Shown here one piece after another: positions 3,720-16,308 of a DNA stretch of 64,000 nucleotides. The notes under the pieces were generated by a model. The model ran no database searches. It saw only the letters and a list, made by a program, of their open reading frames with translations, and was not told where the DNA came from. Each line of letters begins with the position of its first letter. Position 1 is the stretch's first letter. Source of the DNA: Alphaproteobacteria bacterium (lineage in GTDB: Bacteria > Pseudomonadota > Alphaproteobacteria > UBA828 > JAPUJA01); contig CBDAPE010000019.1 of NCBI GenBank assembly GCA_965198325.1, positions 335,063 to 399,062 of the forward strand, written 5' to 3'. A program made the position numbers and the translations under genes.

Positions 3720-3816
3720 TGGCGGAAGAGAGTGGGAGTCGAACCCACCCGGGACGCGAGCCGCGCCCCACACCGGGTTTGAAGTCCGGGCGCCCCACCG
3801 GGGACGAGCCTCTTCC
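3720..3816 (-). tRNA. selC: tRNA-Sec (selenocysteine tRNA, anticodon TCA)
   Basis: The 97-nt reverse complement has the defining Sec structure: 8-bp acceptor stem (GGAAGAGG/CTCTCTTCC), 6-bp D-stem with 4-nt loop (CGTCCC-CGGT-GGGGCG), anticodon loop CTTCAAA identical to E. coli selC, long variable arm, GGTTCGACTCC T-arm, CCA. It lies immediately downstream of selB. Confidence 0.9.
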
Positions 3817-3847: not shown

Positions 3848-5776
3848 TCAAGCGACGGGGCGGCCGGGCCGGTCAGAGCCTCGATTTCGCAGCCGCCGCA
3901 CCGTATCGAGACGCTCGGTCAAACCGGTACGGTCGAAATACTCCAGCACTTCGATCGCGAGATTTCGACCGATCCCCGCCCGGTCGCGATAGGCGGCGAC
4001 GGTGAAGCGGCGATCCGGGGAGTCCATTGCGAGCGCTTCGGCGGCCGCCGCCAGATCGCGCACATGGTCCACTGAAAGAAACCGGTTTTCGGAGACTCGC
4101 GCGACCAGACCCAGGCTCTCCGCGCGTTGCAGGAACCGCCGGAGGGCCGCAGTCTCGAGGTCGAGGCTTTCGGCCAGTTCGTGGACCACCGGCGCCGCGG
4201 CGCTCGATGCAAGTTGCGGTCGGACGCGCCGCCACAGCGCCTGGTCCGGCCCAGGCAACGTCGGCTTGAAATCGGCCAGGGCGAGCCGGGCACCCATCCG
4301 CCGGATTTTGCCCGTTTCCGCCAAGGCGTCGACGACGCCCTCGATCAGGGGAATCGGCACACGCCGCTCGAGCCTGCGCCGCAAGCGGTCGACCTCGATG
4401 CCGGTTCGTTCCGGCTGTTCCTCGTGGCCACGCCCCAGCGCAGCGAGGATGGCTACCTTCAGGGCACGGCCGTGAGCAGGCGACAGGCCGTAGCGAGACG
4501 CCGCCCGATCGACGTGCACCATATCGGCCGCCCGCCACAGCGCCGCGGCGGCGGCTACCGTCAGGTTGCGCGCGCAGGCGAACCGGTTGAGATCGACCCC
4601 GTCCGGTGTCGCGACGAGCAGCGCGGCGAGAGCATCGGGGGCGCTATCGGCCGCCATGCCGGAAAGTGCCGCGAGACGGGCGTGTTTGGCCCGCCCGCGC
4701 GCGGGCGCGAACGGGTCGATGACCCGGCCGCCGCCGACGGTGTGCCGGGAGGTGCCGTCCCTGAGCACGAAGCGGTCGCCGAACAGTGCACCGATGGGGC
4801 GGTCAAGGACGAGTTGGGCGAGCCCCGTCTCTCCGGGCTCGATCGACTCGCGATCCAGCGGATGAACCCGGGCGGTCACGTGGGCCGCGCCGAGGTAGAG
4901 ATGCACGAGCGTTCTCGACCGGAGCACCCGGCGTTCTCCACCCAGCACCCGGATACATCCGTCGAGGCGCGGCGTCGGCGCGTGAGCGGGTTCGGCCACC
5001 AACCAGTCGCCACGGCCAATGTCCGTCCGGCTCAAGCCGCGCCCCGCAATATTCAGCGCACAGCGCTCGCCGGCTCTCGCCTCGGCCGCCTCCCGGTTGT
5101 TGGCGTGAATCCCCCGCACACGAACCGCAGCGCCCATCGGTGAAAGAACCAGGCTATCGCCAATCTGCGCCGTTCCCGACCAGACTGCGCCGGTTACGAC
5201 CAGCCCTGCGCCATCCAGCGTGAAGCAGCGATCGATCGCGAGGCGAAAATTGCCGCAGGGCGCTCTTGGCGCCAGCGCCGCCGCCTCGCGCTCCAGCCAC
5301 GCCCGAAGGGCCGCGATGCCTTCGCCCTGCGGGCTCGCGACGGGAAACACGGGCGCGCCGGCCAGCGGGCCCTCCCCCAGCAACGCAACCAGGGCGCCCA
5401 TCACCTTGACCCGCCTCGTCTCATCGATGCGGTCGATCTTGGTGAGTGCGACCGCTCCGCCCTCGATCCCGAGCAGCTCGAGAATCGCCAGATGCTCCGC
5501 TGTCTGCGGCATCGGCCCCTCGTCGGCGGCAATCACGAGCAGCGCCCGGTCGATTGCTCCGACCCCGGCCAGCATGGTGGCTATGAAGCGCTCGTGACCC
5601 GGCACGTCGACGAACCCCAGCATGTCCCCGCCCGCCGTCGGCTGGTAGGCAAAGCCCAGGTCGATCGACAGGCCCCGGCGCTTCTCCTCCGCCAGACGGT
5701 CCGTCTCGATCCCGGTCAGCGCGCGGACGAGCGCGGTCTTGCCGTGATCCACGTGCCCTGCCGTCGCGCCGATCAT
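3848..5776 (-). CDS. selB: selenocysteine-specific translation elongation factor SelB
   Basis: 642 aa. N-terminal GTPase (AGHVDHGKTAL, DVPGHERF, TKID), then EF-Tu-like domains and C-terminal winged-helix region. Its start overlaps the selA stop (ATGA). Confidence 0.9.
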   Translation of the reverse strand: MIGATAGHVDHGKTALVRALTGIETDRLAEEKRRGLSIDLGFAYQPTAGGDMLGFVDVPGHERFIATMLAGVGAIDRALLVIAADEGPMPQTAEHLAILELLGIEGGAVALTKIDRIDETRRVKVMGALVALLGEGPLAGAPVFPVASPQGEGIAALRAWLEREAAALAPRAPCGNFRLAIDRCFTLDGAGLVVTGAVWSGTAQIGDSLVLSPMGAAVRVRGIHANNREAAEARAGERCALNIAGRGLSRTDIGRGDWLVAEPAHAPTPRLDGCIRVLGGERRVLRSRTLVHLYLGAAHVTARVHPLDRESIEPGETGLAQLVLDRPIGALFGDRFVLRDGTSRHTVGGGRVIDPFAPARGRAKHARLAALSGMAADSAPDALAALLVATPDGVDLNRFACARNLTVAAAAALWRAADMVHVDRAASRYGLSPAHGRALKVAILAALGRGHEEQPERTGIEVDRLRRRLERRVPIPLIEGVVDALAETGKIRRMGARLALADFKPTLPGPDQALWRRVRPQLASSAAAPVVHELAESLDLETAALRRFLQRAESLGLVARVSENRFLSVDHVRDLAAAAEALAMDSPDRRFTVAAYRDRAGIGRNLAIEVLEYFDRTGLTERLDTVRRLRNRGSDRPGRPVA

Positions 5777-7190
5777 CGTGAGCCTGCGGGCTGCTCCAGG
5801 GCATCGAGCTGGCCGGCCAGCGCGTCCTCGTCGTCGAGGCCCCTGAGGTCGAACCGAAGGGCGCCGTCCTCGATCCGCCCGATCACCGGAACCGGCAAGG
5901 CGCGGAAGGCCGCCGCCAGCCGCTCGAGCGCCTTGCCGCTCCCCCGCCTGCCGGTGTTCGGGCTCAGCGCGAGCGCCACGCTTTCCAACCGGCTCGCGGG
6001 CTGGGCGCCGCTGCCCACTTGGCAGTCGGTTGCGATGATCTCGACCGCCACCCCCTCGAGCCTGGCGGCGAGCAGGGGCCCCAGGCGGCGAGCTACGGCC
6101 TCGATCTCGGACAACGGCCGGGTCATCTGGCGCAAGGCCGGCAGGCGCGCGGCCAGCCGGTCCGGATCGTCGTATAGCCGCAGCACGGCGTCGAGCGCGG
6201 CGAGGCTCAGCTTGTCCAGCCTGAGTGCCCGCTTCATGGGATTGCGGCGGAGTCTGGCGATCAGGTCCCCGCGCCCTACGATCAATCCTGCCTGGGGGCC
6301 GCCCAGCAGCTTGTCGCCGGAAAAGCTCACCAGATCGGCGCCGTGGGAAACCGCCTCGCCCGCCGTGGGTTCATGGGGCAGGCCGTAGCGCGCGAGGTCC
6401 ACGAACGCGCCGCTGCCGAGATCCACGATCAGCAGCAGCCCGTGATCGTGCGCCAGTGCTGCGAGCGACCCTTCGGGCACGGCTGCGGTAAAGCCCCGCA
6501 TCTGGAAATTGCTGAGGTGAACCCGCAGGATCAAGGCCGTGCGCGGCCCGATCGCATCGGCATAACCGGAACCATGCGTGCGGTTGGTGGTGCCACCTCG
6601 ATAAGCCGGCAGCCCGCGCGCGCCATGATGTCGGGAAGGCGGAACGAGCCGCCGATCTCGATCAGTTCGCCCCGCGAAACGATGACCTCCTTGCCCTTCG
6701 CAAGGCTGTTGAGCGCGAGCAGCAGGGCTGCTGCGTTGTTGTTCACCGCGGTCGCGGCCTCGGCCCCGGAAAACCGGCAAAGCCGCTCCTCGATATGGTC
6801 CTCGCGCTCTCCCCGCCGTCCTTTGGCGAGATCGTATTCGAGCGTCGAAGGGCCACGCGCCACCGCCGCGATTGCCGCGATCGCCTCTTCGGGCAGGCTC
6901 GCGCGGCCCAGATTAGTATGGATCAGCGTGCCCGTCAGGTTGAGCACGGGCCGCAGACTCGGCTGGCCGCGCGCGGCAAGGCAGGCGCCGACCCGTTCCC
7001 CGATCGCGCCTTCGCTGGCCTCGGGTGGATCGGCGGCCGCGTCCGCCGCCACCGTATCCCGCCAGTCGGACAGCACCGCGCGCACCGCCATGGTCGTGGC
7101 GTCGCGGCCGTGCGCCTCGATCAGCGCCTGGACGACCGGAAACCGCAGCACCCGGTCGACCGAGGGTATCGCTCGGTGCAATGAACTCAT
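5773..7190 (-). pseudogene. selA: L-seryl-tRNA(Sec) selenium transferase SelA, frame broken by a 1-nt deletion
   Basis: N-terminal part is ORF 6531..7190 (...AGCRLIEV|APPTARM*). C-terminal part is ORF 5773..6780 read one frame back (...GTTNRTHGSGYADAIGPRTALILRVHLSNFQMRGF...). Restoring one G in the GG run at about 6593-6596 (gaggtgGcacc to gaggtgGGcacc) gives the conserved SelA segment RLIEVGTTNRTH in one ~470-aa frame. Confidence 0.8.
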
Positions 7191-7474: not shown

Positions 7475-8464
7475 ATGTCAAAGGCACAGGTGATCCACGA
7501 ACTCGGCCCGCCCGAGGCCATGCGGTGGGAAGAGTGGGCGGTACCCGATCCGGCGACCGGCGAAGTCCGCTTGAGGCACACGGCGGTGGGCGTGAACTTC
7601 GCCGACACCTACCACCGGGGGGGCGTCTCCCATCCGGTGCGGGTGCCGGCCTGCCCGGTGGTGGTCGGGTTTGAAGGGGTCGGGGTCGTCGAGGGCGTCG
7701 GCGACGGTGTGAGCTAATTCAAGCCCGGCGATCGCGTTGCCTATGGCATCCCGCCGCTGGGCAGCTATTCCGAGGTGCGGAACTATCCCGCCGACAAGCT
7801 TCTCCATCTGCCCGACGGCCTTGATGAACGGGTTGTGGCCGCGCTCCTCATGAAGGGGATGACGGCCCATTACCTGTTACACCGGACCTACAAGGTGCAG
7901 CCCGGCGATACCATCCTGGTGCACGCCGCGGCGGGCGGCATGGGACTCATCCTGTGTCAATGGGCCAAGGCGCTCGGCGCCACGATCGTCGGCACGGTCA
8001 GCACCGAGGAAAAGGCCGAGGTCGCCCGCGCAGCGGGATGCGACTATCCGGTCGTGCGCTCCAGGGAGGATTTTGTCGCCAAGGTTCGTGAAGTCACCAA
8101 CGGTGAAGGAGCGGCCGTCGTCTATGAGGCGATTGGCAAGGACACCCTGCAACAATCGCTCGACAGCCTGCGGCTGATGGGCGTCTGTGCGGCCTATGGC
8201 CATGTCTCGGGCCCGCCCGATCCGGTCGACGTGATCCAGGACCTGGGTCGCCACGGCTCACTCTACATTACCCGGCCCGCGATCACGCACTACGTGGCCA
8301 AGCGGTCCGACCTTGAATGGACGGCCCGGGATCTCTTCAAGGCCATGGACGATGGAATTCTGGACGCGAACATCAATTACGAGTACCCGCTAAAGGACGC
8401 CGTCAAAGCCCATCAGGCACTCGAAAGCGGCACGACACTCGGCGCGACGGTTCTCATCCCCTGA
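7475..8464 (+). pseudogene. qor: quinone oxidoreductase (Qor-like, MDR/zinc-ADH superfamily) interrupted by an in-frame TAA
   Basis: ORFs 7475..7717 and 7775..8464 share a frame and together form one Qor-like protein (...GVVEGVGDGVS * FKPGDRVAYG...AAGGMGLILCQWAKALGA...). The TAA at 7715-7717 sits where Qor proteins have a sense codon before the conserved FKPGDRV. Good RBS GGGGGAGA before the ATG at 7475. Confidence 0.75.
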
Positions 8465-8518
8465 CACGGCGCCAAGCCGTCGCGGCGCTCCACAAGACTC
8501 TCGAGAAGCAAGCCTGAG

Positions 8519-8567
8519 CCGCCTGGAGCCGGACGGCACGGCAAGGTTCCGGGTCGGCTCCAGGCGG
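8519..8567. terminator. perfect 13-bp inverted repeat (CCGCCTGGAGCCG ... CGGCTCCAGGCGG) between convergent genes; candidate bidirectional terminator or REP-like hairpin
   Basis: Read directly: 13-bp arms with a 23-nt loop, lying between the qor stop (8464) and the stop of the minus-strand DUF1772 gene (8574). No U-tract, so the terminator call is tentative. Confidence 0.4.
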
Positions 8568-8573
8568 GGTGGG

Positions 8574-9062
8574 TTACGCCAGCGCGCGAACGGCCATGAC
8601 GAGCGATGCGGCCGCCGCCAGCGGCACGACTGTTCGAACGTGATTCCACGCTGTCCAGGCAGACAGGTAGCGGGTCCACAGTTCGGCCCCCGCCCCGTTG
8701 CCCGGTTTCACCGCGGCCAGCTCATTGTTGAGCGGAACGTTGAAGACGATGGTCACCAGGATACAACCGATCAGGTAAAGCAGGCCGCCTGCGACCAGAT
8801 AGATCGACCCGTGCGCTTCCCAGTTGAGGAGTCCCAGCACGCAAAGCGCGATCGAGCCCAGCGCGGTCCCGAAAAAGGCGCCGAAGAACCAGGGGTTGAT
8901 GACGACCACGTTGATCGACTGCATGGCCGCGATTCCCTGTTCGGGTGGCAGGCGGCCGAGAGCGGCCATGACGAAGGTCGAGAAGGCGAAGAAGACACCG
9001 GCGACCAGGGCGGCGCCCAACGCCGTCAAGACGGCGATTGTGCTGATCAGGATGGTGTCCAT
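8574..9062 (-). CDS. DUF1772-like small membrane protein (4 predicted TM helices)
   Basis: 162 aa, very hydrophobic with four ~20-aa apolar segments. The family call is from memory of DUF1772 anthrone-oxygenase-like proteins. Confidence 0.55.
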   Translation of the reverse strand: MDTILISTIAVLTALGAALVAGVFFAFSTFVMAALGRLPPEQGIAAMQSINVVVINPWFFGAFFGTALGSIALCVLGLLNWEAHGSIYLVAGGLLYLIGCILVTIVFNVPLNNELAAVKPGNGAGAELWTRYLSAWTAWNHVRTVVPLAAAASLVMAVRALA

Positions 9063-9901
9063 TACCCGATCCCCCAGACGCCGGTTGCAGCCGCATCCCG
9101 GCCATAGTCGGCGAAGTCCCTCGGCGGACGACCGAGAGCGCGATCTACGCCGTCCGCAACGAACTCGTTGCGACCGTCGAGCACGGTCGTGAAGAGATAC
9201 ATCACAAGCGAAGCGACGTTGGGCGGAACCTCGTGCGCTTCGAGCAGCGACGCGTAATCGTCCGCGGAAATTTCCTGGTAGCGGATCGTCCTGCCGCTTG
9301 CCCCGGCGATCTCGCCGACCGCATCGGCGAACGTCAGCAGGCGGGGTCCGGTCACCTCGTAGAGCTGACCGATGTGTGACGCATCCGTCAGCGCCGCCAC
9401 CACGACATCCGCGATGTCGTCCGCATCGATGAGCGGCTCTTTCGTTCCGCCCGCCGGCAAGGCGACCTCACCGGCAAGCACGGCGTCGAGAAGAAAGCTT
9501 TCGCTGAAATTCTGCGCGAACCAACTCGCCCGCACGATTGTCCAGTCGGCACCGCTATCCTGCAGCGCCCGCTGAGCGCGCTGCGCTTCCTCTTCGCCGC
9601 GCCCCGAGAGCAGCACGATACGCCCGACCCCGGCCGCGAGCGCCGTCTCGGTAAACGACCGGACGGCGTCGACCGCGCCCGGCACCGCCAGATCGGGATA
9701 ATAGGCGATGTAGACCGCGCCCACGCCGTCCAGCGCGGACGCCCAGGTCGCTTTATCGTTCCAGTCGAAGCGCGGCTCGCCCTTACGCGATCCGATCCGC
9801 ACCGCAAACCCGTGATCCCATAATTTCTGCGCCACGCGGCTGCCGGTTTTGCCCGTGCCGCCAAGAACCAGGATCGGCTTCGTCTTTTGCATGTCGGTCA
9901 T
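9062..9901 (-). CDS. NmrA-like NAD(P)-binding protein (atypical SDR)
   Basis: Start at MTDMQ, with GGAGG 5 nt upstream. Rossmann motif LVLGGTGKTGSRV. 279 aa. Divergent from tetR. Confidence 0.75.
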   Translation of the reverse strand: MTDMQKTKPILVLGGTGKTGSRVAQKLWDHGFAVRIGSRKGEPRFDWNDKATWASALDGVGAVYIAYYPDLAVPGAVDAVRSFTETALAAGVGRIVLLSGRGEEEAQRAQRALQDSGADWTIVRASWFAQNFSESFLLDAVLAGEVALPAGGTKEPLIDADDIADVVVAALTDASHIGQLYEVTGPRLLTFADAVGEIAGASGRTIRYQEISADDYASLLEAHEVPPNVASLVMYLFTTVLDGRNEFVADGVDRALGRPPRDFADYGRDAAATGVWGIG

Positions 9902-9945
9902 CGTCGCCTCCAAAGATGATAGGTTTCGTTTCCAATTCATTGTCA

Positions 9946-9962
9946 CTTGACACTATGTCAAG
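9946..9962. promoter_or_regulatory. candidate TetR operator: perfect palindrome CTTGACA-CTA-TGTCAAG overlapping the tetR start codon
   Basis: 7-bp inverted repeat with 3-bp spacer in the NmrA/tetR divergent intergenic region. The tetR ATG (9955) lies inside the palindrome. Confidence 0.55.
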
Positions 9963-10554
9963 CGATAAATCCGACACCCGGCAAAGAATTCTCAACGCCG
10001 CCGTGAATCGGCTCGAAGCGGGCCAGGGCGACGGCGTGCGCATGGCCGATATCGCCAAACAGGCAGGCATCAGCCGCCAGGCGCTCTATCTTCACTTCGC
10101 CACGAGAGCGGAGCTTCTGATCGCCACGACGCACTATGTCGACGAGGCGTTGGGGATTGAAGAGCGCCTTGTGCCGAGCCGCACGGCGCGCTCGGGCGTC
10201 GAGCGCCTCAATGCCTATATCGAGGCCTGGAGCGGCTACATCCCGGAAATCTACGCCATCGCCAAGGTGCTTCTCGCGATGCGCGACACCGACCACGCGG
10301 CGGCGCAAGCCTGGGACGAGCGGATGGGGGCCATGCGCGAAGGCTGCGCGGCAGCAATCGACGCGCTGGAGCGCGACAAGATGCTCTCGCCCGAGCATTC
10401 GCCCGACGAGGCCACGGATATTCTCTGGACGATGCTCTCGGTCCGCAACTGGGAACAGCTCACGATGGGCTGCGACTGGTCCCAAGAGCGCTATATCGAG
10501 ACGCTCAAATCACTGGCACGGCGTATTTTCGTGGCGGAACGCGGGTCCGGCTGA
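9955..10554 (+). CDS. TetR/AcrR family transcriptional regulator
   Basis: N-terminal HTH (TRQRILNAAVNRLEAGQGDGVRMADIAKQAGISRQALYLHF). 199 aa from the ATG at 9955; ORF track 9916..10554. Confidence 0.85.
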   Translation: MSSDKSDTRQRILNAAVNRLEAGQGDGVRMADIAKQAGISRQALYLHFATRAELLIATTHYVDEALGIEERLVPSRTARSGVERLNAYIEAWSGYIPEIYAIAKVLLAMRDTDHAAAQAWDERMGAMREGCAAAIDALERDKMLSPEHSPDEATDILWTMLSVRNWEQLTMGCDWSQERYIETLKSLARRIFVAERGSG

Positions 10555-10649
10555 AGAGCGGGCTGAGCGCGCAAGGCGGATCGATTGATCCCGTCTAGGA
10601 CGCCTGAGCGCTCGGCTCTTATGCTCAACCAACCGGGAGCGGCCTTCCT

Positions 10650-11849
10650 CTAGGCCCAGAACCGGGGCACGATAAGAAACATCTCCACGAGCTGCTTGAG
10701 CGCCTTGTCGTCGCTCTCTTCGCTCAGCGCCTCGAGCGCGAGGATCGCCTTGGCGGCCTTGGTCTCGGCCCAGAACCAGTCGCCGAGATCTTCCATCCCG
10801 GTCATCCCTCGTGAGCCGCTCGCGGTCTCGGTGTAATAGGCCCAGAGGTCTTCGCAGGCGAGCTTGAGCATCATGAGCGGGGGCACGCCCTTGCGCGGGC
10901 TCTTGACCTTGTCGGTCGTCAGCCAGCTGACGATAAAGGGTGCCAGCTCCTCGATCGCCAGCTCGCTCGCCCCGACGGGCGTCCGCCCGCGCCGGGCGAC
11001 CGCCGCGTCGTACTCGGGCCGGATTTCGGCAATCTCCGCCTGGATTTCGGCCAGCAGCCTTGCCGGGTCCGCCCGGTCTTCGGGCTTCGAGACCAGTTCG
11101 TTCGGCAGGGCATGGGTCATGCGCCGGCCGCGTATGGGAACGACCACGGGATAGTCGGCCAGAACCGGCCCCACGGGTGCGTCGAACAGAGCGAAGGCGG
11201 CGCGGATGACGCCTTTCTGAAAGTCGGGATCGTTCGGCTTGCCGAACGGGCGGCCCATGGGCATGTCGAGCCACAGCGCACGGGGCGCCCCGATCGCGGC
11301 GGCATGCTCGCGGACGAAACAGACCAGCGTCGTTGCCAGCCCCTCTTTCTCGAAGAAATATGCAAGCCCGCACACGGTGCGCGTGCAGAACGGTCAGACG
11401 GGGGCGAGCAGAACCGTGTTGACGCCCTCGGCCTTCATGCGGCTCGCGACGTCGTGCACGCTCTTTTCATACTCCAGCGGGTCGGTCGCGCCCATGAAGG
11501 AATAATGGGTCTCGGCCACCGCGCCGATCTCACCGTCCGCCGCCATCTCCTTCAGGCGGTCCACCGGCAGGATCGCATTGAGGTCCTGCTACCACGCGGT
11601 GCGGTCGTAATCCACCGCGACATGAGTCATCACGAGGTTCTTGTCGTCGGCGTCGAACGCCCGGTAATCCCGAGCGGACCAGCTAAACGGCTTGTCGCCC
11701 CGTTTGCTCAACCCCGCCGAGGAGACCACCGCCACCTTGCGCTCACGTGCAGCCACGGGCGCCGTCCAGGGCCGGTCCGCAAAATCCGGCATTTCGAGCT
11801 CCTCGAACATCTCGCGTGGCAGCTTCGGCATGTCATGCATCAGAACCAT
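10650..11849 (-). CDS. candidate selenoprotein (family unresolved, possibly GrdB/PrdB-like reductase B); one frame carries an in-frame TGA (Sec?) at 11394-11396 and an in-frame TAG at 11589-11591
   Basis: ATG at 11849 with GAGGAG 6 nt upstream. Frame reads 86 aa, TAG, 64 aa (...MKAEGVNTVLLAPV), TGA, then PFCTRTVCGLAYFFEKEG... for 247 aa (the ORF-track piece 10650..11375 starts at an internal GTG). U-x-x-C redox motif; GC hairpin 6-26 nt after the TGA. selABC is 4 kb away. Confidence 0.45.
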
Positions 11850-11922
11850 CGCTCGCTCCTCATCCTCAAGCCGTCGAGCGGCGCCAGCTTAGTAAAGCTC
11901 CGCCCTGGCGGACACAGCCTCT

Positions 11923-13200
11923 TTACCCCGGCGGATCATTTTGCCGTGATCGGGCCTTTGCCGGGATCAGGAACCACAGAAAGGCGATCACCTGCAGCCC
12001 CAGGGCGGCGGCGAATGCCGCCCGAAAACCCGCCGGGTCGTAGCCGCCTTCGGGGCCGAGGGGAAAGGCGTTGATAATGACGCCCATGCCGTACTGAACG
12101 ACGAACACGCCCGCGAAGACGACCAGGTTCAGGCTGGTGTTGGCCCGGCCCGCAAACTCGATCGGGAAATAGCGCGACAGATGGGCGTAGGTCAGCACCG
12201 ACATATGGCCAACCAGCCCGAACAGGATCCATGGCCAGATACCGGCAGGATCGAGTTCGAAGATGACGACCAACTGGGCCCCGAAAAAGAGCACGGTGCT
12301 CACACCCAGAACCTTGGCCAGGCCGATGCCTACGCGGGCCAGCCGGTCGGTGACCAGACCGCCCAGCGCGACCCCAATGCCCATGGCCGCCGTATTCGCC
12401 AGCAGATAGACCGCCAGCGTATTCCGATCGAGCCCGCCGACGTCCTTCATCCACGGCCCCGCCCACAGGCCCTGGATCGACATCCCCCCGGCGACGCCGG
12501 TTACGGCAAGCGGCGTATAGCGCCAGAATTCCCGGTCGCCGAAAATTCGGCGCAGATCCCGGATCTGGCGTGCAAAATTCAGCGGTGTGGTCGTGACCGG
12601 TTTTTCCGGCACGACAAAAAAGATCGCCAGCGACACCACGACGGTCGCGATCGCGCATCCCAAAAAGACGCCGCGCCAATCGGTCACCTGCAGGAGCGCT
12701 TCGACTGGTGCCGTCGCCGTCATCGCGCCGAGTGCGCCCATTCCCAGAAAGCAGCCGTTCGCCAGCGGCCAGCGCTCGCGGGGAAACCAGATGGTGATCG
12801 CCTTGAGCCCCGACATCAGGCCGCCCGAGACGCCGAAGCCGATCAACGCGCGACCGATCAGCAACGGTGTCTGGCTCTCGCCCAGCGAGAAAATCAGCGC
12901 GCCGAGCGCCGCGACGAGTAGTTGAGCCGACTGCACCCGGCGCGGCCCGAAGCGATCGAGCATGACGCCGAGGGGAAGCTGATTGGCGGTGAACGTGAGG
13001 AAAAACACCGCCGTCAACAGGCCGAGGCCGGCGGCGCTCAGGCCGAGCTCCGCGACCAGCTGGGGCGCGATGATCGCATTGATCTGGCGATAGAGGTCCG
13101 AGAAGAAAAATCCTGCGGCGAAGGGCAGAAAAACGAGAATCACGCCCAGCGCGAGGCTGGTGCCCGGTTCTCTGGCCGGGCTCGATTGGGGAGCACTCAC
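11923..13200 (-). CDS. MFS transporter
   Basis: 425 aa, about 12 hydrophobic helices, GTG start. Sits immediately upstream of the candidate selenoprotein on the same strand. Confidence 0.8.
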   Translation of the reverse strand: MSAPQSSPAREPGTSLALGVILVFLPFAAGFFFSDLYRQINAIIAPQLVAELGLSAAGLGLLTAVFFLTFTANQLPLGVMLDRFGPRRVQSAQLLVAALGALIFSLGESQTPLLIGRALIGFGVSGGLMSGLKAITIWFPRERWPLANGCFLGMGALGAMTATAPVEALLQVTDWRGVFLGCAIATVVVSLAIFFVVPEKPVTTTPLNFARQIRDLRRIFGDREFWRYTPLAVTGVAGGMSIQGLWAGPWMKDVGGLDRNTLAVYLLANTAAMGIGVALGGLVTDRLARVGIGLAKVLGVSTVLFFGAQLVVIFELDPAGIWPWILFGLVGHMSVLTYAHLSRYFPIEFAGRANTSLNLVVFAGVFVVQYGMGVIINAFPLGPEGGYDPAGFRAAFAAALGLQVIAFLWFLIPAKARSRQNDPPG

Positions 13201-13231
13201 CGGGCGCGCTCCACGGGCGCGGCGGAGATCG

Positions 13232-14062
13232 TCACGAGCCGCCGTCGGGGGTCTTCTGGAAGCGCGCCTCCCGCCATTCGAGCGCGGCTTTCAGGCCGTC
13301 CTTCTGCGCGATCGCGGTAAACGCGCGGCGAAGCGCGCTGCCCTCGCCCTCGATCAGCAGATCGGTGTCGAGCGCCATCTGAAGGGCCTTGTCCATGCCC
13401 ATGATATCGAGGCTGCGGTTGATCGCCCGCTTGGTGCTCTGCACCACGGCGGGGTCCATCACCGCCATGTCCCGCGCCATCGCAAGCGCGGCGTCGACAT
13501 GCCCGCCCTCGGGCACCACCCGGTTGATCAGGCCGATGGCAAGCGCGCGCTCGGCGGGGATCTTGTCGTTCCCCGTGAGCAGCAATTCCTTGGCCTGCTT
13601 GGGCCCGGTCACCCAGGGCAGGATCATGACGACGATGCCCGCGCCGAAGCGCAATTCGGGCTCGCCGAACATCGAACCTTCCGCCGCGATCGTGATGTCG
13701 CAGGCGAGTGCCAGTTCGCAGCCGCCCGCAAGCGCGAAGCCGTGAACCGCGGCGATGGTCGGCTTGGGACAGCGCCAGAAGCGCATGATGGTATCGAAAT
13801 CGAGCTGCAGCGCGGGCTGCCATTCGGCGACCCCCTCCGGCAGATCCGCAAGCTCCGCCTTCAGGTCGAAGCCTGAGGAAAACGCCTTGCCCGCGCCGGT
13901 CAGCACCAGCGCGCGAATCCCGTTTTCCGTCTCGACCTGATCCAGCACCTGATTCAGCTCGCCCAGCAATTCGGCATTCATGGCATTAAGCCGTTCGGGC
14001 CGATTGAGCGTCAAGAGGCCGACGGGCCCGCGGGTCTCGAACGAGACGGTTTCCCACGCCAT
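13232..14062 (-). CDS. enoyl-CoA hydratase/isomerase (crotonase) family protein
   Basis: Start trimmed to MAWETVSFETRGPVGLLTLNRPERLNAM (crotonase signature). GAGKAFSSGFDL oxyanion-hole motif. Confidence 0.85.
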   Translation of the reverse strand: MAWETVSFETRGPVGLLTLNRPERLNAMNAELLGELNQVLDQVETENGIRALVLTGAGKAFSSGFDLKAELADLPEGVAEWQPALQLDFDTIMRFWRCPKPTIAAVHGFALAGGCELALACDITIAAEGSMFGEPELRFGAGIVVMILPWVTGPKQAKELLLTGNDKIPAERALAIGLINRVVPEGGHVDAALAMARDMAVMDPAVVQSTKRAINRSLDIMGMDKALQMALDTDLLIEGEGSALRRAFTAIAQKDGLKAALEWREARFQKTPDGGS

Positions 14063-14867: not shown

Positions 14868-16040
14868 ATGCCCCTCCTCGCCCTCGTTGCGGCCGTCCTG
14901 TGGAATCTGTTCATCGGCCTGTTCTATTGCTGGAGCGTCTTCATCGTGCCGCTGGAAGAGGCGCTCGACGTTTCACGTGCGAGCGTGAGCGCGGTCTTTT
15001 CGGTGGGCATCGCGTGCTACGCCGGCGGCATGTTCCTCTCGCCCCACCTGCTCGCCCGCGTCCCCCTGCCCCGGCTTGCCGCAGCGCTCGGACTCGGCGC
15101 AGCGCTCGGGCTCCTGATCGCCGGACTGGGGGCCAGCCTCGGCGCGCTGATCGCGGGCTTCGGCATTGTCTTCGGGCTGACGGCGGGCGCAGGCTATGCG
15201 CTGGCGCTGCAGGCAGCGAGCGGCGAGCTGCCGGTCAGGCGCAGCTTCGCCATCAGCATCACGGTTACCGCGTTCGCTACGGCGGCGCTGCTCTGGCCCA
15301 AGCCGCTCAGCCTGCTGATCGCCGCTCTGGGGCCGTTTACGACCCTCATCCTCTACGCCGGGGCGATGGCCGGAATCGGGCTCGTCATCGCACTCCTGCT
15401 TCGGCTCTCGGGCGCGCGGGCGCCGGCCGCGGACGACGCCGAGGCGACACGGATCTTGCACAACTTCCTGACCGACCGGCCGCGCGTCTTCGTGCTGATC
15501 TGGCTCAACTTCGTCTTCCTGGCGATGGGTGGCTTGACGGCGTTGAGCCACGCCGCCGGCATCGCCGGGGCCTTCGGCGTTCCCCCGGATCAGGTCTATT
15601 TCGCCCCGATGGTGACGAGCGTCGGTTATGTCGCCGCCTGCCTGTGCGCGGGCCCCATGACCGACTGGCTCACGGGCCGGCGCGTGCTGATGGGCCTCTC
15701 GGGCGTCATGATGGCGGCTCTGCTGGCGCTGTTCCTGGCCCCCTCGGCCTGGCTCAGCCTGCTTGTCCTGGCCCTCGTGGGTGCCAGCTTCGGCGCGACG
15801 GCTGCGGTTTATCCGGTCACCGTCGCGAGCTATTACAGCATCTCGGAAATGGGCCGCATCTACGGCCGGATTACGCTCGCCTACGGCACCGGCGGCATCG
15901 CCGCGCCCCTCATGGCCGGTGCACTCTACGACTGGGAAGGCGGTTACCACTGGTCGCTGCTGATCGCGGCCGGGTTCGCCGCCGCCGGAATCGCTGCAAG
16001 TTCGGCGCTGCCGCAGCCGGCCCGAACAACCGCCGGATGA
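14868..16040 (+). CDS. MFS transporter
   Basis: 390 aa, Ala/Leu/Gly-rich with about 12 TM segments. Its 3' end lies inside the 85-bp direct repeat. Confidence 0.8.
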   Translation: MPLLALVAAVLWNLFIGLFYCWSVFIVPLEEALDVSRASVSAVFSVGIACYAGGMFLSPHLLARVPLPRLAAALGLGAALGLLIAGLGASLGALIAGFGIVFGLTAGAGYALALQAASGELPVRRSFAISITVTAFATAALLWPKPLSLLIAALGPFTTLILYAGAMAGIGLVIALLLRLSGARAPAADDAEATRILHNFLTDRPRVFVLIWLNFVFLAMGGLTALSHAAGIAGAFGVPPDQVYFAPMVTSVGYVAACLCAGPMTDWLTGRRVLMGLSGVMMAALLALFLAPSAWLSLLVLALVGASFGATAAVYPVTVASYYSISEMGRIYGRITLAYGTGGIAAPLMAGALYDWEGGYHWSLLIAAGFAAAGIAASSALPQPARTTAG

Positions 16041-16054
16041 TTATCTACCCGCTA
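15970..16054. repeat. 85-bp perfect direct repeat, copy 1 (last 71 nt of the MFS CDS plus 14 nt of 3' flank)
   Basis: Identical to 16146..16230: ccgggttcgccgccgccggaatcgctgcaagttcggcgctgccgcagccggcccgaacaaccgccggatgattatctacccgcta. Both copies are followed by an A-run plus GG. Confidence 0.9.
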
Positions 16055-16145
16055 AAAAGGGGGTTGAACCTTTGCCCCGGCGGTTATCCCAAATCACTAC
16101 CCAGATAGTCGACCTGGCTGATTCTGCGCAAAATTCCCTCAGCAC

Positions 16146-16230
16146 CCGGGTTCGCCGCCGCCGGAATCGCTGCAAGTTCGGCGCTGCCGCAGCCGGCCCG
16201 AACAACCGCCGGATGATTATCTACCCGCTA
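16146..16230. repeat. 85-bp perfect direct repeat, copy 2 (non-coding; 91 bp of unique sequence separates the copies)
   Basis: Exact duplicate of 15970..16054 at 176-bp periodicity. The second copy has no upstream start codon in the MFS frame. Confidence 0.9.
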
Positions 16231-16308
16231 TAAAAAAGGCCGCGTTCAAATCGGACGAGTCACCGGATATCCAGGCCTTCGAAGCCGCCCGGGGCCGCCC
16301 GGAGCCGC

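Follow-up and report, generated by a model that had tools for sequence, protein, structure and literature searches.

The selenoprotein gene on the minus strand between positions 10650 and 11849 very probably carries a genuine and recent nonsense lesion. The gene is PrdB-like, and its in-frame TAG at codon 87 would make it a young unitary pseudogene in a lineage whose selenocysteine (Sec) pathway is decaying. All coordinates refer to the window, that is, the whole 64-kb stretch of DNA analysed. The first-pass annotation of the window had offered three explanations for the TAG, namely a nonsense lesion in a decaying selenoprotein gene, a sequence error, and an independent 86-aa protein that is in frame only by coincidence. 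The first is the one borne out, as the orthologues have CAG at this site, Gln occurs in 118 of 120 homologues, three haplotypes carry the TAG, and the neighbouring selA is frameshifted. The features of the gene are as follows.

10650..11849, minus strand: PrdB-like (Pfam GRDB) selenoprotein gene, probable pseudogene, 399 codon positions including one TAG and one TGA
11589..11591, minus strand: in-frame TAG, codon 87, CAG (Gln) to TAG, from orthologue and homologue alignment
11394..11396, minus strand: TGA selenocysteine codon (codon 151) in U-P-F-C (UxxC), from family comparison
11366..11382, minus strand: SECIS-like hairpin, starting 11 nt after the UGA, RNAalifold consensus with 5 pairs

Read on the minus strand, the frame starts at ATG 11849-11847, which is preceded by an SD sequence (AGGAG, 11860-11856) with a 6-nt spacer. 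From this ATG, 86 sense codons lead to the TAG at 11591-11589, another 64 to the TGA at 11396-11394, and a further 247 to the terminal stop, TAG 10652-10650. The start and the codon counts given by the first-pass annotation were reproduced exactly. Besides TAG-87 and the Sec TGA, the frame contains no stop or frameshift, and 311 of its codons lie downstream of the TAG. The frame looks coding on both flanks of the TAG, with a GC3 of 0.83 and 0.88 for the 60 codons on either side, compared with a window GC of 0.64. When normal gene ends and antisense artefacts were excluded, a six-frame scan of the window left three stops in coding-like surroundings, namely TAG-87, the Sec TGA, and a TAA at 7715.

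Profile searches were carried out with the 399-residue product in which both stops were masked. PF07355 (GRDB) matched aa 11-149 with 52.1 bits (cutoff, 22). TIGR04483 (PrdB) matched aa 33-219 with an E value of 2.5e-30 and 105.7 bits, which is under its equivalog cutoff of 300, and the various_sel_PB subfamily model gave 57 bits against a cutoff of 65.45. The joint homology search of the 86-aa and 64-aa segments, which had been proposed in the first-pass annotation, thereby yielded GRDB and PrdB matches that both cross codon 87. Searched alone, the 64-residue segment still matched GRDB and the 86-residue fragment had no profile match. A sequence search of the PDB returned no match, even at E = 1.

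For the N-terminal part, database searches recovered more than 200 homologues, almost all with a length of exactly 151 aa because gene callers end them at the TGA. The region past the TGA is represented by many 241-253-aa "hypothetical proteins". Two Cys-type homologues (P0035 and P0036) are single unbroken 415-aa ORFs with CPNC at the Sec site, which shows that the entire frame encodes one polypeptide. The Sec position of the window reads V-U-P-F-C, and TGA is followed by P-F-C in all 77 family loci from reference genomes, which represent SAR116, Rhodobacteraceae, Granulosicoccaceae, Stellaceae, and other Alpha- and Gammaproteobacteria. In the Sargasso Sea and GOS metagenomes, the UxxC "proline reductase PrdB" family (pfam07355) has been reported to rank among the most abundant selenoprotein families (PMC1088965, PMC2398784; Zhang, Gladyshev and co-workers). 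Judged from profiles and alignments, the 1.2-kb frame is one gene of this marine PrdB-like selenoprotein family.

Comparison with orthologous loci, a check also proposed in the first-pass annotation, recovered a sense codon at the site of the TAG. Species C (L003, L004, L009, and L011; 82% nt identity) has TGG-CAG-CAG where the window has TGG-TAG-CAG, with CAG at codon 87 read in L003, L004, and L009. Species B (L012, an Alphaproteobacteria MAG, CBDFML010000012.1; 88% nt identity) encodes A-W-Q-Q-D-L-N, with Gln at codon 87. In these two nearest sister species, the 151-codon segment up to the TGA is unbroken. Among 120 homologues, the column aligned with the TAG holds Gln in 118, Leu in one, and a gap in one, and it sits in the most conserved motif of the domain, D-R-[TS]-[AG]-[WF]-Q-Q-D-x-N. 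Since the sister species retain the Gln codon, the lesion is a C-to-T transition in the first base of CAG. TAG-87 is, on this comparative evidence, a nonsense mutation of a nearly invariant Gln codon.

Just upstream of its intact PrdB-like gene, species C (L009 9210-9434; also L003, L004, and L011) has a 74-aa ORF that is 57% identical to the first 67 residues of the PrdB-like product. This ORF is absent from the window and from L012, and looks like a partial tandem duplicate of the PrdB-like N-terminus.

The TAG is also present in three assemblies of the same species, ENA ERZ25072076 (L001/L006), ENA ERZ25072526 (L002/L007), and Logan ERR13605531 (L008). In L006-L008, gene callers split the frame into ORFs of 86, 56, and 241 aa, as would be expected if the gene were split into two functional polypeptides, an N-terminal one of 86 aa and a downstream one that restarts at GTG 11564. 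We give this reading hardly any credence. GTG 11564 is the sole start between the TAG and the TGA that gives a listed ORF, and no AGGAG-like sequence lies upstream of it, in agreement with the earlier statement that the inter-stop segment has no SD-bearing start. A restart at this GTG would also lose eight residues of the core motif (QQDLNAILP). No homologue is split here, the 86-aa product (P0127) is confined to the species of the window, and the 56-aa and 241-aa calls are the pieces that the Sec TGA yields throughout the family. The proposal of an independent 86-aa protein was likewise rejected, since the TAG lies inside the Pfam and NCBIfam matches and the homologues, in place of a separate conserved gene for the 86-aa domain, are continuous over 151 aa, or over 415 aa in the Cys type.

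The machinery for Sec insertion is encoded 4-8 kb from the PrdB-like gene.

5773..7190, minus strand: selA (selenocysteine synthase), disrupted, from profile, tblastn, and DNA alignment
3848..5776, minus strand: selB (Sec-specific elongation factor), 642 aa, apparently intact, with the full domain set
3720..3816, minus strand: tRNA-Sec, anticodon UCA, intact, from ARAGORN and Rfam RF01852

The selA of the window is broken into a 219-aa and a 253-aa ORF that lie in separate frames and match SelA profile positions 1-119 and 118-366. A tblastn search with the intact 486-aa SelA of species C placed the frame switch at window position ~6594, and the DNA alignment (GAGGT-GGC versus GAGGTCGGG) revealed that the window lacks 1 bp between Val203 and Gly204 of the orthologue. 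L006, L007, and L008 share this deletion, whereas L009 and L010 do not have it and encode an intact SelA of 486 aa. SelB of the window contains GTP_EFTU, a beta-barrel domain, and three winged-helix domains. The tRNA-Sec scores 73 bits with RF01852, compared with 72.9 bits in L009, in which selA and the PrdB-like gene are intact, and the two tRNAs differ by one compensatory pair. No selD was found among the ORFs scanned in the 64-kb window. Beyond it, the genome could encode another selA, a selD, further selenoprotein genes, or a suppressor tRNA.

Across the family, selA was found within 8 kb of the PrdB-like gene in 24 of 80 loci and selB in 29 of 80, and most of these loci belong to the nearest clades. 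A more distant relative, L093 (4.5-Mb genome), has its PrdB-like gene next to a selD fusion, followed by tRNA-Sec, selB, and selA. The fusion (L093 8245-10437) is a 730-aa protein with a pyridine-nucleotide disulfide oxidoreductase domain and SelD (AIRS/AIRS_C), and the whole forms a compact selenium cassette. Since the Sec genes adjoin the PrdB-like gene in close relatives, the PrdB-like protein is likely a principal client of the Sec machinery there.

A split selA was also observed in L012 (CBDFML010000012.1, 13708-15134), in which the PrdB-like gene is intact. Its 81-aa and 400-aa ORFs result from a net -1 frameshift that falls within a variable, G-rich linker and not at the site of the window's lesion. 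The split could have arisen independently as a genuine lesion, or it could reflect a homopolymer error in long reads. In the former case, the sister lineage would have lost selA before its client gene. As the site is G-rich, some selA indels in such assemblies could be errors.

The nucleotides past the TGA are extraordinarily conserved across the family, including at synonymous sites. In the RNAalifold consensus, 98% of the cells of the hairpin are paired, and columns 19/33 form a covarying pair (7 of the 77 sequences have U-A in place of C-G). An alternative fold with 9 pairs is 88% paired, shows no covariation, and is disrupted in half of the sequences. Folded by itself, the window sequence did no better than shuffled controls (z = -0.33), so the case for the hairpin rests on nucleotide invariance across species and one covarying pair. 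Position 11378 (column 22) is A in the window and G in all 77 other genes, and it shows no polymorphism among the four same-species sequences. The G-to-A change replaces Ala with Thr at codon 157. It loses the G-C pair beside the apical loop in the consensus fold and is a loop change in the alternative fold. Cys homologues, which need no SECIS, have Thr at residue 157; hence, the Ala157Thr substitution appears to be tolerated in the protein, and the invariance of the G looks like a constraint on the RNA. The change at 11378 would presumably disable the SECIS.

If the TAG were a sequencing or assembly error, the true base would be C (CAG) and the PrdB-like gene would be intact. The assemblies are indeed not free of errors, since L006 is a low-coverage contig ("3x" in its name) with several private 1-bp indels, and the selA frameshift in a G run of L012, a long-read-style MAG, is possibly artefactual. 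The TAG is a substitution, however, not a homopolymer indel. It is identical in four sequences obtained from three samples or runs with different assemblers, and it co-occurs with two further lineage-specific changes in the Sec pathway, in selA and in the SECIS. The three same-species assemblies are 99.85-99.96% identical to the window and differ from it by 7-24 SNPs, and SNPs at 11753 and 11741, 150-160 nt from the TAG, segregate among the same-species sequences. L007 and L008 represent one haplotype, so the window and the three assemblies comprise three haplotypes, all with TAG. The comparison was made at assembly level, and ERZ25072076, ERZ25072526, and ERR13605531 may stem from one study. 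The same base in four separately obtained sequences that differ by SNPs excludes a random sequencing error, and the earlier suggestion of such an error was rejected on this ground. For a substitution, a systematic error of the sequencing platform is highly improbable. Overall, there is only a very slim chance that the gene is intact and the TAG an artefact. The JGI metagenome collection gave no match to an exact 47-nt pattern with Y at the variable base, which indicates that the species of the window is absent from that collection.

The remainder of the window gives no sign of general gene decay or of generally poor assembly, since its housekeeping genes match NCBIfam models at essentially full length. 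Among them are purL, purB, cysS, nadE, gor, and the genes for DAHP synthase, succinate-semialdehyde dehydrogenase, class III alcohol dehydrogenase, and citramalate synthase. The three lesions found, namely the selA frameshift, a TAA in an alcohol dehydrogenase (ADH)-like gene, and the TAG of the PrdB-like gene, all lie within 5.7-11.9 kb.

The ADH-like gene is a zinc-type alcohol dehydrogenase / quinone-oxidoreductase-like gene of 329 codons (7475-8464, plus strand), located between selA and the PrdB-like gene. Its in-frame TAA (7715-7717; context G-V-S-*-F-K-P-G-D-R-V) yields an 80-aa ORF (ADH_N) and a 229-aa ORF (ADH_zinc_N), and the same split is called in L006, L007, and L008. In the sister species, its place is taken by a different gene (NAD_binding_2 / RedAm-like). 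The ADH-like gene looks like a second nonsense pseudogene. Elsewhere in the window, two 89-nt direct repeats (15970-16058 and 16146-16234; 99% identical) flank an 87-nt insert and cover the 3' end of an MFS transporter gene. The extra 176 nt are absent from L006 and L007. The repeat region (15970-16234) may reflect structural variation, a duplication-insertion, or an artefact of assembly.

A genuine TAG could still be read through. UAG-87 might be decoded by a near-cognate tRNA-Gln or by a suppressor tRNA encoded elsewhere, and the gene, with two recoding events, would give some full-length selenoprotein. Near-cognate read-through of UAG usually inserts Gln, which here is the wild-type residue. 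The open frame over the 311 codons past the TAG and the intact selB and tRNA-Sec are also in line with this idea. It is opposed by the selA frameshift in the same haplotypes, as Sec-tRNA(Sec) is not expected from that copy and ribosomes that read through UAG would still stop at UGA-151. The mutated, otherwise invariant SECIS base speaks against it as well. ARAGORN and Rfam found only tRNA-Leu, tRNA-Sec, and tRNA-Glu in the window, with no tRNA(CUA) or tRNA-Pyl. No TAG occurs at codon 87 among ~120 aligned homologues, and a degenerate motif pattern with the TAG fixed had no match in the JGI metagenome collection. The earlier remark that UAG read-through or pyrrolysine is unexpected here is consistent with these results. 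We therefore regard decoding of UAG-87 as very unlikely. A low-level variant, in which UAG-87 is read as Gln by a near-cognate tRNA-Gln or an unseen suppressor tRNA and UGA-151 as Sec by means of a selA copy or an alternative route outside the window, is very improbable; if true, the locus would be a naturally attenuated, doubly recoded selenoprotein gene.

TAG-specific recoding in the organism was also considered and rejected. The only other genuine internal stop in the window, in the ADH-like gene, is a TAA, so no TAG-specific pattern exists. The locus resembles known cases of pyrrolysine use or amber suppression in that an in-frame UAG lies within a conserved enzyme domain. It differs from them in that the window has no tRNA(CUA), the TAG is not conserved in homologues, and the ancestral codon is an ordinary Gln codon.

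Three-taxon estimates of branch dN/dS for the PrdB-like gene, for which the tree varies between genes, were 0.19 for the window, 0.11 for species B, and 0.36 for species C. A value of 0.19 indicates purifying selection over almost the whole branch of the window, and by a crude estimate at most ~8% of this branch was neutral. Long-term relaxed selection on the gene was rejected, since the dN/dS shows no long neutral phase. Within the species, the PrdB-like gene has five SNPs in 1.2 kb (three nonsynonymous and two synonymous; binomial p = 0.025), and SNPs are 2.2 times as dense in the three Sec-pathway genes as in the other coding DNA (binomial p = 0.039). The within-species N:S ratio is not distinguishable from that in other genes (Fisher p = 0.70), so it is only the SNP density that suggests relaxed constraint. 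The low branch dN/dS and the unremarkable N:S count against a pseudogene, and the intact selB and tRNA-Sec are compatible with a system that is still in use. The combination of intact selB and tRNA-Sec with a low long-term dN/dS is also what points to a recent decay. The TAG arose after the divergence from species B and predates the common ancestor of the sampled haplotypes.

Gene trees around the locus are discordant. In MFS1 and TetR, the window is closest to L012 (86-88% nt identity), and the PrdB-like and Anthrone_oxy genes are intermediate (~8500-13400 versus flanks). In the suf genes, MFS2, enoyl-CoA hydratase, selA, and selB, the window is the outlier at ~75%, and L012 and L009 are mutually closest. 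This pattern suggests that the island once recombined or was transferred between these lineages.

The preferred reading, a recent nonsense lesion in a failing Sec pathway, can be put as a sequence of events. In functional relatives, translation would start at the SD/ATG, and UGA-151 would be decoded as selenocysteine when SelB with Sec-tRNA(Sec) binds the hairpin 11 nt downstream, which would yield the U-x-x-C redox centre. In the species-level lineage of the window, a C-to-T change turned Gln-87 from CAG into TAG, and translation would stop after 86 residues, ahead of the active site. With the 1-bp frameshift, the selA copy of the window would supply no Sec-tRNA(Sec). An otherwise invariant SECIS nucleotide has changed in the same lineage. 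Selenocysteine use would thus be in the course of being lost, with selB and tRNA-Sec not yet decayed. It is the occurrence of the TAG, the selA frameshift, and the SECIS change in one lineage that points to this loss. We infer that termination at UAG-87 is efficient and that the genome has no second selA or suppressor tRNA elsewhere.

Taken alone, the PrdB-like gene is an ordinary pseudogene. The locus is a dated snapshot of a bacterium abandoning selenocysteine. The client gene (TAG and SECIS change) and selA are broken, whereas selB and tRNA-Sec have stayed intact and the cassette still works as a whole in sister species. For annotation, the locus is a practical warning, as the TGA splits members of this family into 151-aa and 241-aa "hypothetical proteins", and here the pieces measure 86, 56, and 241 aa. 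Pipelines that separate Sec codons from true stops could use it as a natural test case.

The product of the window shares with clostridial PrdB and with GrdB, GrdF, and GrdH a homologous N-terminal region of ~220 aa and the same position of the Sec residue. It differs from them in scoring far under the equivalog cutoffs and in having an additional C-terminal region of ~180 aa that matches no Pfam model. In the window's species, L009, the P0045 genome, and L093, the Pfam-annotated genes out to ~10 kb include no PrdA- or GrdA-like or other prd genes; what is conserved nearby is an MFS transporter, an enoyl-CoA hydratase, and a TetR regulator. Given the sub-cutoff score, the extra C-terminal region, the lack of a prdA-like neighbour, and the different conserved neighbours, the gene does not appear to be a bona fide clostridial D-proline reductase PrdB. 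The closer likeness is to the marine PrdB family, with which it shares the GRDB domain, Sec at ~151 in U-x-x-C, a candidate hairpin closely 3' of the UGA, and hosts among marine Alpha- and Gammaproteobacteria. Unlike other members, the copy in the window has TAG at Gln-87, an altered SECIS base, and a frameshifted selA nearby, and would be a dead member of the family.

Most bacterial lineages are inferred to have lost selenocysteine use (Zhang et al., 2006, PMC1794560). The terms "pseudogene" and "frameshift" are absent from the text of that paper, which infers loss from presence and absence, whereas the locus of the window has been caught mid-loss. The locus is a clean instance of this well-known loss of the Sec trait, with no new mechanism, and it shows the intermediate state that such a loss is expected to pass through.
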